Shown: in pieces, positions 1,927 through 26,457 of the stretch | Layout: every line of letters begins with the position of its first letter | Numbering within the stretch: position 1 is the stretch's first letter | Assembly: GCA_963845185.1 (NCBI GenBank) | Contig: CAWJRG010000001.1 | Location: 270,806 to 334,805, forward strand | Source: an uncultured bacterium | GTDB taxonomy: Bacteria > Oederibacteriota > PGYV01 > CAWJRG01 | Length of the DNA: 64,000 nt | Direction of reading: 5' to 3' | Program-made: the position numbers and the translations under genes | The notes under the pieces: model-generated | Database searches by the model: none | Told to the model about the DNA's origin: nothing | What the model saw: only the letters and a program-made list of their open reading frames with translations

Positions 1927-2085
1927 AGATAGCGTTTGTTTTGTCAAGCCGTCAACAGGCGCTGACAAAACACTACGCTATCTTAGTACCCGCTCCAGTC
2001 ATGGTTTTACCCTGACAAGCGGTATCAATTTGTTTTGCCAAGCCGATCAAGTCCGAGGCTACTGCCAAGGACAAGCGGCGCTTGA
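1927..2085. other. Structured two-hairpin element, copy 1 (ParB leader; hairpin A present twice)
   Basis: Long stems with internal loops; architecture shared with 23807-23904 and 26358-26457. Confidence 0.65.
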
Positions 2086-2114
2086 ATTTTTAGCGTACTG
2101 CCAATCGTGGATAC

Positions 2115-2143
2115 ATTATAATACTACGAAATGAAGGGTTCAA
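2115..2143 (-). promoter_or_regulatory. sigma70 promoter for ParB gene (leader of about 200 nt)
   Basis: TTGAAC-17-TATAAT. Confidence 0.6.
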
Positions 2144-2247
2144 GAAATATTTTGATGGAAATTTTTGGAATTAATAATTGGAATTGCCCTTTTGTTGCCT
2201 ACACATCCCCCTTACCACTTACCCCGTCTTTTGTCTGTTTTATGCTT

Positions 2248-2628
2248 TTATTTCAGGTTATTTTTTACCATGGCAATAATTTCTTTTGCCTTGGCAGTAC
2301 AGCTTTCAGCCTGTTTAAATGTCGGCTCTATAAATTCATCAGGGTAACGCACCTGCACCGCGTAAAAATTCAATTCAGCCGCTTCAATTTTATTAAAAGA
2401 CCCGTCATATTCCGCACAAAGCTTTAAAAGCATCGCAATATCATGTGTTTTGCCCGTTGTTTTCCCCTTATCGGCGAGAAATGCTTTCAGGTATTTTTCG
2501 GCGGCCTGCTGCGCATGGAAACAGACGGCGCCTTTTGCGCATTCAGTTTTCCCAAGCTTCAATTCGTGCCCGACGACTTTCATATCTTCGTCCGCTTTTT
2601 GAATCCATCGGGCCGAAATATCTTTCAT
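2248..2628 (-). CDS. HEPN domain protein
   Basis: FHAQQAAEKYLKAFL, KTHDI, VRYP motifs; overlaps upstream MNT gene. Confidence 0.85.
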   Translation of the reverse strand: MKDISARWIQKADEDMKVVGHELKLGKTECAKGAVCFHAQQAAEKYLKAFLADKGKTTGKTHDIAMLLKLCAEYDGSFNKIEAAELNFYAVQVRYPDEFIEPTFKQAESCTAKAKEIIAMVKNNLK

Positions 2629-2960
2629 ATCGCGACGCCTTCTTTTTCCGCTTCATAGGATATTGTCCCTGCCTGCCTGGAAAGGACGGAAAATTCACTT
2701 TCTGTTTTTATTATTATATCGGAAGGTATGAGTTCCCCCGCAAGCGCGTTGTTTATTTCCTTAAAAAGGGCGATTTTTTCTTCAAAGCCAATATCCTGCC
2801 CGACCACCAGCAGGATATCAAAATCGCTGTCATTGTCATTATCCATTCTCGCCCTCGATCCGAAAAGTATTATTTTTTCTATAGCAAGATTTTTGGCTTC
2901 AGCGCGGGATTCGATAATCTGTCTTATTTTTTCAATATTTTTATCCGTCTCATTTTTCAT
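2625..2960 (-). CDS. Minimal nucleotidyltransferase (MNT)
   Basis: ILFGSRARxxxxxxSDFD (GS-X10-DXD) motif. Confidence 0.85.
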   Translation of the reverse strand: MKNETDKNIEKIRQIIESRAEAKNLAIEKIILFGSRARMDNDNDSDFDILLVVGQDIGFEEKIALFKEINNALAGELIPSDIIIKTESEFSVLSRQAGTISYEAEKEGVAI

Positions 2961-2984
2961 ATTTTACGCCTTCCTTTGATTGAT

Positions 2985-3013
2985 ATTATACGCCGCTGCA
3001 TTTGCTCCGTCAA
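2985..3013 (-). promoter_or_regulatory. sigma70 promoter for MNT-HEPN
   Basis: TTGACG-17-TATAAT. Confidence 0.6.
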
Positions 3014-3034
3014 CTCCGCATTTAAAGCTTGAAT

Positions 3035-3223
3035 TTATAGTTTCTTAAAGAAATCATTCCCGTTGTCAACGCGTATAAACCTGCCGCTGAGTGCGTCTTC
3101 CAGCCCTTTGCGTATCGCGCCTATAACCATGGGGTTCCTGTATACCCACGCTTCCCTGTCGGGAATCTCGGCAGTCGGCGAAGTCGCTTCTTTTGCCTTT
3201 TTTGGCTTTTTATATGTTTTCAT
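3035..3223 (-). CDS. Small protein resembling an antitoxin C-terminal region
   Basis: RBS AAGGTG; IPDREAWVYRNP...IRKGLEDA resembles tails of AbrB/MazE-type antitoxins; no DNA-binding domain seen. Confidence 0.4.
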   Translation of the reverse strand: MKTYKKPKKAKEATSPTAEIPDREAWVYRNPMVIGAIRKGLEDALSGRFIRVDNGNDFFKKL

Positions 3224-3365
3224 TTTTTCACCTTCCTACCTAAAGTATAGCCGAAAGCGGGAAAGGTCTCAAGTGGAAAAATGGATAAAATATTCCCTAA
3301 ATACATATATTTCTTGCTTTTAATTTCAAAAGCAGTTAAAATTTCTTGTATTTAATTCCAAAATA

Positions 3366-23904: not shown

Positions 23905-23907
23905 TAA

Positions 23908-24543
23908 TTATTTTTTCTTTTTCTTTGCTTTTTTAACAGTCTTTTTTGCCGATTTTGCCTTTGCGGCCTTTTTTGCAGTCGGCCTTCTCGCCGGTTTTAC
24001 TGCTTTTACTTCGTATAATTTCGTTTTCAGCGACTGTAAAAACTGTTTTAAGCTGCCGTCTATAAGGTTGAACCTGTCCCTTATTATAATGCCTCCCAGT
24101 ATGTCAGGGTTAACTTCGGTTTTTACTTTCAAAGTACTGTGCATTTTTTTCTCAAGTTCTTTTATAAGCCTGTCCCTGTCTAGCGTGCTCAAAGGATAAG
24201 CTGTCTCCATTGTTATTTTCCTTATCCCAGCGTCCTCGTCAGCCATTTCAGCGAATATATCGCATATATCATAGAATATCTTCTCCCGTTTTTTATCCAC
24301 TACAAGGCACAAAAAATCAAATGAAAGCTTTGATATATCTTTCGAAAATATTTTTTTCAAAATATCCTTTTTTTCATCCCTGTTTATGCCCGGATGGTAA
24401 AAAACATCCTGAACGTTAACGTTGTTTTTCATGAAAATCTCTATTGCCTTCAGGTCTTCTTTTACAACCTGCAGACTGTTTTGCTCTTTTGCAGCCTGAA
24501 ACAGCGCCTCCGCGTATTTTGACGGGAGTACCAGGTTTCCCAT
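23908..24543 (-). CDS. atpH: ATP synthase delta subunit with Lys/Ala-rich tail
   Basis: YAEALF, VNPDILGG, IDGSL; operon position. Confidence 0.92.
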   Translation of the reverse strand: MGNLVLPSKYAEALFQAAKEQNSLQVVKEDLKAIEIFMKNNVNVQDVFYHPGINRDEKKDILKKIFSKDISKLSFDFLCLVVDKKREKIFYDICDIFAEMADEDAGIRKITMETAYPLSTLDRDRLIKELEKKMHSTLKVKTEVNPDILGGIIIRDRFNLIDGSLKQFLQSLKTKLYEVKAVKPARRPTAKKAAKAKSAKKTVKKAKKKKK

Positions 24544-24545
24544 TT

Positions 24546-25037
24546 TTAATTCACCCTTTTCTCAATATCTTTTAAATAATTTTTGATTATCCCCATCTGT
24601 TCCTTGCTTCCCACTTTTTTCTTTATGACCTTTTCAGCGACCATTATGGAAAGTTCCGCTATCTTATCCTTAACGCTTCCTATTGCCCGTATTTTCTCCG
24701 CCTCTATCTCGCGTTTTGCCTCGTCGATTAATTTCGCGCCTTCCTTATGCGCTTCTTCAGTCATCTGCGACTTGATTTTGTCGCCTTCGGCCACCGCTTT
24801 CTCGAGCGCGCTGCTTGATTTTTGCTCTATTTCTTTAAGGCTTTTTTCGTATTCCAGCTTCATTTTCTCAATGTCGGCTTTGTCTTTCTCGATTTTGTCA
24901 ATTGATTCCCTGATAAAATCGTCTCTTTTCTTTAAGGTTCTGGAAAGCGCCTTTATAAAAAGAATCCATACCAGTGGCATTGCGATTAAAAAAGTAATTA
25001 TCTGCGTTAAAAATACCGGCCAGTTTATCTCTACCAT
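24546..25037 (-). CDS. atpF: ATP synthase b subunit
   Basis: N-terminal TM then charged coiled coil; operon position. Confidence 0.9.
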   Translation of the reverse strand: MVEINWPVFLTQIITFLIAMPLVWILFIKALSRTLKKRDDFIRESIDKIEKDKADIEKMKLEYEKSLKEIEQKSSSALEKAVAEGDKIKSQMTEEAHKEGAKLIDEAKREIEAEKIRAIGSVKDKIAELSIMVAEKVIKKKVGSKEQMGIIKNYLKDIEKRVN

Positions 25038-25109
25038 AGTAAACCTCCAAAATTCAAGTTTGCGTAAGTTGTTTCCATGAGTCCAAGCGGAGCTTTCGCC
25101 CCGCGTTTT

Positions 25110-25484
25110 TTAACTGATAAAAAATGCCGAGAACGGATTTGCAAAAATAAGTATCAGCCCTATAACAAGCGCATAAATCGTAAGGGATTCGATAAAAGCA
25201 AGTCCAAGGATTAACATAGTCTGTATCTTGCCTGCTGCTTCAGGCTGTCTTGCAAGGCCCTCAGCAGCCTTTGCAGTAGCCATTCCCTGTCCAAGTCCGC
25301 ATCCAAGTGCCGCTAATCCAACTCCGAGCGCTGCTGCCAATACCGTAAAAGCGAAGAAATTTACGCTCTCGTTTGTCGCTTTTTTAACTGCCGGCGCCGC
25401 AGCCGATGTTTCGGCAGCAAAAGCCGTGCCGACAACCGCAACAACAATCAAAACCGCCATCAACAAAGTAACTATCCTTTTCAA
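25110..25484 (-). CDS. atpE: ATP synthase c subunit with N-terminal extension
   Basis: GLGQG, ARQPE, IESLTIY; start re-called to TTG 25484 behind AGGAGG. Confidence 0.93.
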
Positions 25485-25544
25485 ATCTGCACCTCCTGTT
25501 TTTAATTTCAATTTTTATATTTTATTTTAATTCCCTGTTTTTAT

Positions 25545-26342
25545 TTACCGCGCATGCTCTTTGCTGTGTTCATCCTCTCCATGATGAGCCGCCACTGCGC
25601 CTGCAAGGTATATTGATGTCAGCAGAGCAAAAACGCCTGCCTGAATAATACTTACTAGTGTTCCTAACACTATAATAAGCGGCCTTAAAAGGAAAGCAAA
25701 ACCACCTATTAGTCCGGCAATTACTCTTTTCAGAATTTCCTGGTTACTCAAGTCAGGCCAGAACATTAAAACCAACAACACAAGCACGCCTAATAGAATT
25801 TCTTTTGCAATTAGATTTCCGAAAAGCCTGAAAGACAGTGACAATGGTCTGGATATGTCTGAAAGCATTTCAACAAAAAACATAAAAGGCTTTAAAGGCC
25901 CTGGTATACCCGGCCCTCCTGTAAAGTGCGCAAAAAATTTAATAGGCCCTACTTCAATAATGCCTGAAATCCAATACCAAAAAAATACCATTAATGCGAG
26001 CGCTACAGTAACGGACAGGCTTGACGTTGGCGATGTAAGACCAGGTACAAGCCCAATAAAATTGCCTATTAAAATATAGAAAAAAATCATTACTATAAGT
26101 CCATAATATTTTGGCGCTTTCTCCCCTATTATGGAGTCCGCGGTATCAGTGATATATTTGACCGTCCATTCCACAAGGTTCTGGGCTTTTTTGGGTTTCA
26201 TTTTTGGATTTACTGACCCTAACGCGAATATAATAAAAATAATAAGATAGTCAAGCAGCATCATTAGTAGTATTGTAAAATAATGGTCATCAAGTCCAGG
26301 TATAAATGATTTGAATTCTATGGCTTCTTTTATTCCAGTCAT
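25545..26342 (-). CDS. atpB: ATP synthase a subunit
   Basis: RPLSLSFRLFGN, IQAGVF.LL..IY. Confidence 0.95.
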   Translation of the reverse strand: MTGIKEAIEFKSFIPGLDDHYFTILLMMLLDYLIIFIIFALGSVNPKMKPKKAQNLVEWTVKYITDTADSIIGEKAPKYYGLIVMIFFYILIGNFIGLVPGLTSPTSSLSVTVALALMVFFWYWISGIIEVGPIKFFAHFTGGPGIPGPLKPFMFFVEMLSDISRPLSLSFRLFGNLIAKEILLGVLVLLVLMFWPDLSNQEILKRVIAGLIGGFAFLLRPLIIVLGTLVSIIQAGVFALLTSIYLAGAVAAHHGEDEHSKEHAR

Positions 26343-26357
26343 TACTTTGTCTCCTTA

Positions 26358-26457
26358 GAATCCGTTGATTTTGCCTAGTGTCAACAGCAAAGGCAAAATC
26401 TTACGGAATCTTGCACCCAATCCAGTCCGAGGCTACTAATCCGAGGACGAGCGGTGC
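26358..26457. other. Structured two-hairpin element, copy 3 (atpI-atpB junction)
   Basis: Shares AGTCCGAGGCTACT and GGACRAGCGGYGCTT with copy 1; abuts atpB RBS. Confidence 0.65.

Follow-up and report, generated by a model that had tools for sequence, protein, structure and literature searches.

A repeat of about 100 nucleotides (nt), which consists of two consecutive hairpins (A and B), was analysed in a stretch of 64,000 nt (the window) from an uncultured bacterium of the lineage Oederibacteriota; PGYV01; CAWJRG01 (assembly GCA_963845185.1, contig CAWJRG010000001.1, positions 270,806 to 334,805 of the forward strand). In the window it stands directly before the Shine-Dalgarno (SD) sequences of atpA, atpB and a gene with a ParB_N domain; about 150–170 copies, which are gained, lost and tandemly amplified in one order, occur in the genome. 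The repeat is likely a non-autonomous mobile element similar to repetitive extragenic palindromes (REPs) and bacterial interspersed mosaic elements (BIMEs); its folded form would be single-stranded DNA of the antisense strand, and hairpin B would be pasted flush to the SD sequence. The element is real, it is undescribed in the sources searched, and it is not an ATP synthase leader.

In the genome holding the window (G000), profile hidden Markov models (HMMs) for the two hairpins, seeded from pattern matches, yielded 150 matches for hairpin A and 141 for hairpin B at E<0.01, as compared to 0 and 1, respectively, in the reversed genome at E<1. Merging of matches at E<0.1 resulted in 171 clusters, with architectures that include AB (97), ABAB (5), BAB and AABAB, units being arranged head-to-tail; a tandem array of 13 hairpins with a period of 100 nt was found at C9:916537. 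A covariance model built from 54 copies matched 148 of the 150 candidates scored, which is a lower bound. In the alignment of these 54 copies 90% of the cells were paired, versus 33–46% in slid controls, and two-sided changes were present in 25 of 37 pairs; none of 500 shuffles scored as high, a significance which is overstated, as the structure had been derived from these same copies, which are related to one another. The outer stems were recovered independently by RNAalifold. The window copies, from which the model was built in part, scored 78–87 bits, and in each of them the two hairpins form on either strand (z = −4.0 to −8.8 versus shuffles). Their ends are not complementary, i.e., there are no terminal inverted repeats.

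A previous sequence-only reading of the window had described three loci of an unnamed, covarying element next to the SD. Their places on the minus strand (Table 1), the covariation and the adjacency were confirmed, and a search of the whole window against Rfam produced only a tRNA at gathering score, while at E up to 10 the region 23500–26700 gave only three sub-threshold matches (E 4–8). Instead of three copies, about 150–170 loci are present in G000. Pairing of the outer stems is kept in general, with one T-T mismatch in the third stem (atpB); locus 1 does contain a unit, as part of an array A – 3' fragment of B – A – B and not as a single one, and the gene called ParB has a ParB_N match which is weak and limited to the N-terminus of the protein.

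The landing place was examined with a second model of hairpin B, which gave 179 matches; 16 of these ran into another unit and 15 lacked the 3' anchor, leaving 148 terminal copies. An SD sequence plus an open reading frame (ORF) of at least 50 amino acids (aa) followed 105 of them, an SD only was found after 13, and neither after 30, whereas 2.3% of 20,000 random intergenic positions passed the same SD and ORF test. The SD core was located 8–10 nt past a conserved AAC in 93 of 104 copies, and the start codon 15–24 nt past this anchor. At atpA, atpB and the ParB_N gene 2–4 nt lie between the outer stem of hairpin B and GGAG, and the distance to the SD stays at 2–4 nt even where the spacer comprises hundreds of bases. 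Among 86 copies assigned to subfamilies, the subfamily predicted the 4 bases before GGAG (permutation p 0–0.0075) and none after it (p 0.06–0.9); thus, the element ends at the edge of the SD, and the spacer belongs to the host gene. The sequence-only reading had considered that many copies in random orientation, unrelated to ribosome-binding sites, would speak against a regulatory role. Copies are indeed numerous, but their orientation is not random; 147 of the 171 clusters were co-oriented with the next gene as determined with a crude ORF caller. There was no strand bias beyond that of the genes (96/105 versus 85%, p 0.10), and targeting of a replication strand was not seen. No promoter was found at a fixed distance in G000 (-10-like sequences in 11 of 95 copies at a gap of 2–8, versus 12 of 95 at a gap of 20–26). 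The downstream genes, as named by eye from translations, are varied (ribosomal, purine, amino-acid, toxin-antitoxin and secreted-protein genes), with no evident common pathway. Predicted openness of the SD did not change, with 0.52 in 86 genes with the element and 0.49 in 250 others; the 20 nt upstream of the SD were more paired with the element (predicted openness 0.28 versus 0.52).

Copies are crowded in variable regions, with 29 close pairs compared to 16.8 ± 3.7 expected. Two such regions of G000, C9:652000-690000 and C9:912000-938000, are rich in toxin-antitoxin, restriction and secreted-protein genes, and many genes there are preceded by the element; they appear cassette-like, without an integron integrase. 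Inspection by eye showed modules nested within some copies (C10:122642, C10:695741, C9:934947 and others), including GTAG REPs, heptamer repeats, another long hairpin and a B-like hairpin in inverted orientation. Several copies retain only the 3' arm of hairpin B plus the SD; a count of 5' versus 3' truncations was too noisy, with 44 matches in the reversed genome.

Relatives of G000 (genomes G001, G003, G014 etc.; families f2 and f10; loci outside G000 are given L-numbers) were scanned with strict filters and only 41 candidates scored per genome, covering 99 genomes of the phylum in all. Of the 23 other genomes in the order, 12 gave matches to the covariance model, as compared to 0 of 75 elsewhere in the phylum; a pattern match in G028, which lies in a coding region and lacks support by the model, was rejected. 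In a quick AtpA tree G000 grouped with its order and apart from the single named Goldiibacteriota sequence. Two copies in G001 (f2) adjoin an SD. Among the 18 loci of family f10 there is none next to an SD, and at 13 both neighbours are on the other strand; the fold is the same in f10, and most copies are followed by an A-run and a hairpin, i.e., a host terminator in reverse. Hairpin A is preceded there, at 0–3 nt, by a -10-like hexamer (gap of 1–2: 14 of 23 in sense, 8 of 23 in antisense), which is too near for the whole hairpin to be transcribed, so that an RNA gene standing on its own is less favoured. G009, G017, G019 and G021 have in common a copy in antisense at the stop codon of fabG (fabG-acpP). 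One f10 copy, at L100:8230-8900 (G014), is directly followed on the other strand by the apparent 3' end of a group II intron, as judged by eye. In viral sequences the hairpin A pattern was present in 67 stretches, none of them a convincing element, with one HMM match at E 0.007, and the hairpin B pattern in none; blastn against plasmids and phages gave no match.

Direct duplications of 37–78 nt, in which the DNA preceding the element is repeated after its 3' end, were found at five loci, each in a different family (L363, L334, L362, L346, L338). As labelled by eye, the duplicated flanks were 3' ends of genes, two of them from ribonucleotide reductase genes and one each from another ORF, a tRNA and a 5S RNA. 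In two cases, L363 and L334, the duplicated target begins with a sequence whose reverse complement forms the 5' arm of the second hairpin B. From a metagenome scan of at least 120 stretches, which contained many chance matches, 22 loci were compared and 13 with an orthologue at 75–93% aa identity were kept. Seven of these sites were filled in both genomes (L202, L208, L210, L215, L228, L232, L254), three of them differing in subtype or array length, and six were filled in the metagenome relatives and empty in G000 (L186, L194, L229, L235, L241, L252). The loci were chosen for carrying the element, so that the comparison covers only sites filled in the relatives. Upstream DNA was rearranged at two of the six; at L235 the SD and spacer were retained in the filled and the empty allele. 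In a pair of paralogues in G000 (C1:125884/135760) the element replaces the 17-nt spacer between stop codon and SD. A target duplication was not evident in the pairs of empty and filled sites.

The suspicion, expressed already from the first three copies, that the antisense strand may be the folded one gained support. Mismatch origins were counted as maximal clades on a rough tree of 92 full copies; in mRNA sense there were 69 A-C versus 10 G-U origins in hairpin A, which correspond to wobble pairs on the antisense strand. For hairpin B the antisense fold had the lower energy in 68 of 88 copies, or in 63 when DNA parameters were used, and in 16 of 16 f10 copies. A TC/TC inner loop, which is a tandem GA on the other strand, occurs in 44 of 128 distinct hairpin A copies; a further loop, UCMAG/CRA, is conserved in sequence and may correspond to the C-loop RNA motif on the antisense strand. 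The mismatch patterns mostly favour the antisense strand as the folded one. Since the transcribed strand varies between families while the fold is kept, a role at the level of DNA or of a mobile intermediate would appear to be the simpler explanation.

A mobile REP-like element of this kind could operate as follows. Its antisense strand would fold once exposed as single-stranded DNA, and a protein could read the fixed bulges, the structure being kept for such recognition, as REP bulges are for TnpA-REP. An enzyme would attach hairpin B exactly at a site rich in purines, whereas joining at the A end would be loose; the looseness is suggested by the replaced 17-nt spacer of the paralogue pair and by the 37–78-nt duplications in other families. 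The host gene would tolerate the insertion, as it keeps an intact SD and spacer, which are predicted to be open; effects on the stability of the mRNA or on its translation would be of secondary importance. It is further conceivable, as a more tentative proposal, that this is a gene-less mobile element of a new class, in which a single strand with two hairpins is recognised by an enzyme that belongs to none of the RAYT, integrase and IS110 families. Such an enzyme would join hairpin B precisely to purine-rich DNA, namely an SD in two families and a terminator A-run in another, and could duplicate tens of target bases; about 100 genes, including core genes, would thereby share a structured 5' leader.

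Several observations weigh against mobility by a folded antisense strand. The strand signal is mixed: mismatch origins in hairpin B were 33 A-C versus 25 G-U; hairpin A energies showed no strand preference (66 versus 61), and with DNA parameters were against antisense (48 versus 74); one hairpin A position alternates between T-G and C-G in mRNA sense (125 versus 8 in G000, 14 versus 7 in f10), which is a wobble only on the mRNA strand. The GGAG is invariant and can be assigned neither to the element nor to the target. No flank duplication of 13 nt or more was found at any of the 171 clusters of G000. Sites empty in G000 could be losses, as the empty allele of L186 may contain a remnant, and the persistence of old orthologous copies (the fabG-acpP copy and the seven shared sites) would fit selection for a host function too. 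Moreover, a search for a mobilising enzyme in G000 and four relatives provided no linked gene. No Y1 transposase adjoined a copy, and 10 Y1 loci of relatives were devoid of the element at E<0.1; the integron integrase model (TIGR02249) remained under cut-off in 5 of 5 genomes, likewise in all 14 controls; loci for IS110, reverse transcriptase (RT; RVT_1), DUF559 and GIY-YIG were unlinked to the element, which was also absent from 10 loci of small GIY-YIG genes.

Genes for tyrosine recombinases (phage integrases) were not tied to the element either; the Y2_Tnp search, to which no control responded, was uninformative. Two RAYT-like genes of G000 (C1:234044-234622, C5:416752-417444), missed by the Pfam Y1_Tnp search, were found by tblastn; both are flanked by GTAG REPs and not by the two-hairpin element, which is thus not a GTAG-REP. 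An IS110-family transposase gene is present in the window (51627-52676, minus strand) as one of five near-identical copies in G000, at least two others of which lie inside a palindromic repeat unrelated to the element. RT genes were detected only in G000 among the five genomes, in six copies of a group II intron; G014, G019, G001 and G003 carry the element without an RT match. The intron occurs in G000 at C1:269894 (about 900 nt to the left of the window), C9:699945, 813074, 846914, C10:385218, 831397 and C11:63444, in six RT-bearing copies and one ORF-deleted copy. At 7 of 7 sites it follows SD-N-ATGA; it carries its own SD and ATG near the 3' end and would restart the interrupted gene.

The repeat might instead be a domesticated, portable mRNA leader, of which the RNA of the sense strand folds and is bound or cut by a host factor (as a 5' stabiliser, an RNase III/J site or a translational insulator), and which spreads by gene conversion. 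The 105 co-oriented, SD-adjacent copies and the SD-abutting copies of G001 are consistent with such a leader, as are the location at the ParB_N gene, downstream of a promoter match and before the SD, the T-G/C-G covariation, which suits the mRNA strand, and the 7 of 13 orthologous sites in common with relatives, whose swaps of subtype resemble conversion. This explanation appears unlikely, since f10 copies with the same fold are antisense to host genes and behind terminators, a shared pathway of downstream genes is not evident, the A-C excess and purine-rich loops are on the antisense strand, promoters at fixed distance are lacking in G000, and gene conversion is unable to seed new sites. Another explanation would be a conserved regulator of ATP synthase stoichiometry, a role which had been proposed earlier and with which the presence of the element at both atpB and atpA in the atp operon would agree. 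For atpA this is refuted: the atpH-atpA spacer is free of the element in 19 of 19 relatives and measures 20–57 nt (15 measured) versus 113 nt in G000. Since the element also precedes about 105 other, unrelated genes, the probability of such a regulator is negligible.

Copying of a retro-mobile RNA by an RT, here that of the group II intron, could, by template switching, account for the exact 3' end next to the SD as well as for truncated 5' ends and long duplications. G000, the only one of the five genomes with an RT, contains the most copies, and the preference of the intron for SD-N-ATGA, the copies reduced to the 3' arm of B plus SD and the long duplications at 3' ends of RNA genes and other genes would agree with this; nevertheless, such a route is improbable. 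Four genomes have the element without an RT match, the intron junction is at the start codon, 10–14 nt from the junction of the element, and the element is upstream at only 2 of 7 intron sites, whereas the truncation pattern is noisy and selection for the SD would leave the 3' arm likewise. Very improbable is untargeted insertion, followed by selection which purges copies except those that spare the SD and are unable to terminate transcription. Absence of SD plus ORF after 43 of 148 terminal copies, the variation of contexts by family and the clustering in variable regions would be expected from it, yet selection alone would permit any upstream position, and not an SD distance fixed to 2–4 nt in very long spacers.

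Table 1. Positions in the window of the two-hairpin units and of the genes and signals next to them.
Feature	Position	Strand	Basis
Full unit before ParB_N-domain gene (hairpin A 1986-2025, hairpin B 1925-1984)	1925..2025	-	77.7 bits
Remnant of second, upstream unit: extra hairpin A (~2043-2082), then 3' fragment of hairpin B	2029..2082	-	hairpin A E 6e-8; B fragment E 0.07; 26.5 bits
SD-like sequence right after hairpin B; start codon at 1910	1918..1926	-	sequence
420-aa ORF, weak N-terminal ParB_N domain (E 1.9e-6)	648..1910	-	domain search
Sigma-70-like promoter match (10/12), ~30 nt upstream of locus-1 array	2115..2143	-	consensus match only; 1 found vs 1.0 expected by chance
Full unit occupying atpH-atpA spacer; begins 3 nt past atpH stop; GGAG at 23801-23804	23805..23904	-	86.6 bits
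atpA (F1 alpha)	22286..23794	-	domain search
atpH (delta/OSCP)	23908..24543	-	domain search
Full unit before atpB; GGAG at 26351-26354	26355..26457	-	75.9 bits
atpB (Fo subunit a)	25545..26342	-	domain search
131-aa ORF at atpI position; without Pfam or NCBIfam match	26436..26831	-	ORF + family search

The ORF at the atpI position runs 22 nt into hairpin A of the atpB copy, with its stop codon in the hairpin loop; a terminator scan of the atp copies showed no excess. A paralogue of the ParB_N gene with 93% identity (C10:318220) has GTAG-REP copies before its SD instead of the two-hairpin element. The ParB_N gene itself is bordered by a Gp49/RelE-like gene and a nucleotidyltransferase-HEPN pair (window 140-517 and 2248-2960, minus strand). 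Elsewhere in the window a split transketolase pair is followed by a RuBisCO-like protein under every NCBIfam cut-off (3366-6440, plus strand), a PorV/PorQ-family protein lies above the NCBIfam cut-off (15222-16166, minus strand), although the lineage is not placed among the Bacteroidota here, and a degenerate repeat with a 54-nt period (54861-55111) is found within ORF 54796-55245.

The spread of small gene-less repeats in bacteria is known for the REP/RAYT system and for little else. Strong covariation, landing at the SD with a precision of 2–4 nt and the switch of context between families should provide a handle on the mobilising enzyme, and also on how repeats enter essential operons harmlessly. 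In addition, the element is a warning that a covarying motif which resembles a leader and precedes a core gene may be a repeat and not a riboswitch.

No description of the two-hairpin element was found in the literature searched, which included few subscription papers. Compared with known systems, it differs from Rfam families and riboswitches by the lack of a gathering-score match, and it is neither confined to one pathway nor conserved across species. The terminal inverted repeats and fixed short target duplications of miniature inverted-repeat transposable elements (MITEs) are missing. In relation to the hairpin ends of IS200/IS605 elements (palindrome-associated transposable elements, PATEs), which accompany a Y1 transposase/TnpB gene and have a tetranucleotide target, units of the element often end in YAA, and no Y1 locus has the hairpins. 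Integron attC sites likewise have one folded strand, the bottom strand (PMC8266576), with extrahelical bases and a variable apical part, are co-oriented with genes and are dense in variable regions. The attC boxes R''/R' (RYYYAAC...GTTRRRY) were found in 0 of 3 window copies on either strand, and copies of the element precede core genes. The title of a paper by Doran (1997) reportedly names the targeting of translation initiation signals by IS900, a member of the IS110 family. According to the available part of PMC8141618, this 1,451-bp autonomous insertion sequence has been reported to target such signals and possesses neither terminal inverted repeats nor target duplications, which resembles the element; the latter has no linked transposase, and the IS110 copies of G000 are elsewhere.

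Mycobacterial interspersed repetitive units (MIRUs), as far as described in the accessible sections of PMC12548453, are similarly short, apparently mobile repeats which hardly impair the gene at whose translation start they land; they insert at the start codon with a coupled ORF, whereas the element is non-coding and upstream of the SD. Close in layout are Neisseria REP2 and Borrelia IR-A/IR-B, which from the portions of PMC3184786 at hand are repeats of 120–150 nt with two internal stem-loops and no terminal inverted repeats, located directly 5' of ORFs. Their copy numbers are 23–26 as compared to about 150–170 for the element, and REP2 carries a promoter, ribosome-binding site and ATG (PMC3184786, same portions), while the element is without a promoter at a fixed place and stops at the SD, spacer and ATG being those of the host gene. 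With GTAG-REPs and REPINs the element shares high copy number and extragenic, clustered imperfect palindromes; their unpaired GTAG/GTGG at the hairpin foot is replaced in the window copies by a paired, covarying 5' triplet, with GTAG/GTGG occurring only in loops or stems, and a cognate RAYT gene bordered by the repeat is lacking. CGTC-REPs, following the excerpted text of PMC3733652, have an unpaired terminal CGTC/TGTC, a stem of 8–9 bp, a CCA tail and head-to-head dimers; in the element YGTC is internal and paired in hairpin A, and units are head-to-tail. The general resemblance to REP, BIME and REPIN sequences with TnpA-REP (RAYT), as far as covered by the sections available of PMC8266576 and PMC3733652, lies in the number of copies outside genes (more than 100), in imperfect hairpins whose bulges are conserved, in the occurrence of mosaics and tandem arrays and in strand asymmetry. 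In the REP/TnpA-REP system the bulges of the hairpins are read by the protein and the folded strand is single-stranded DNA (PMC8266576, in the part available), and of the alternatives given in the sequence-only reading it is the REP-like single-stranded DNA element with which the copy number, arrays and hairpins found here agree.

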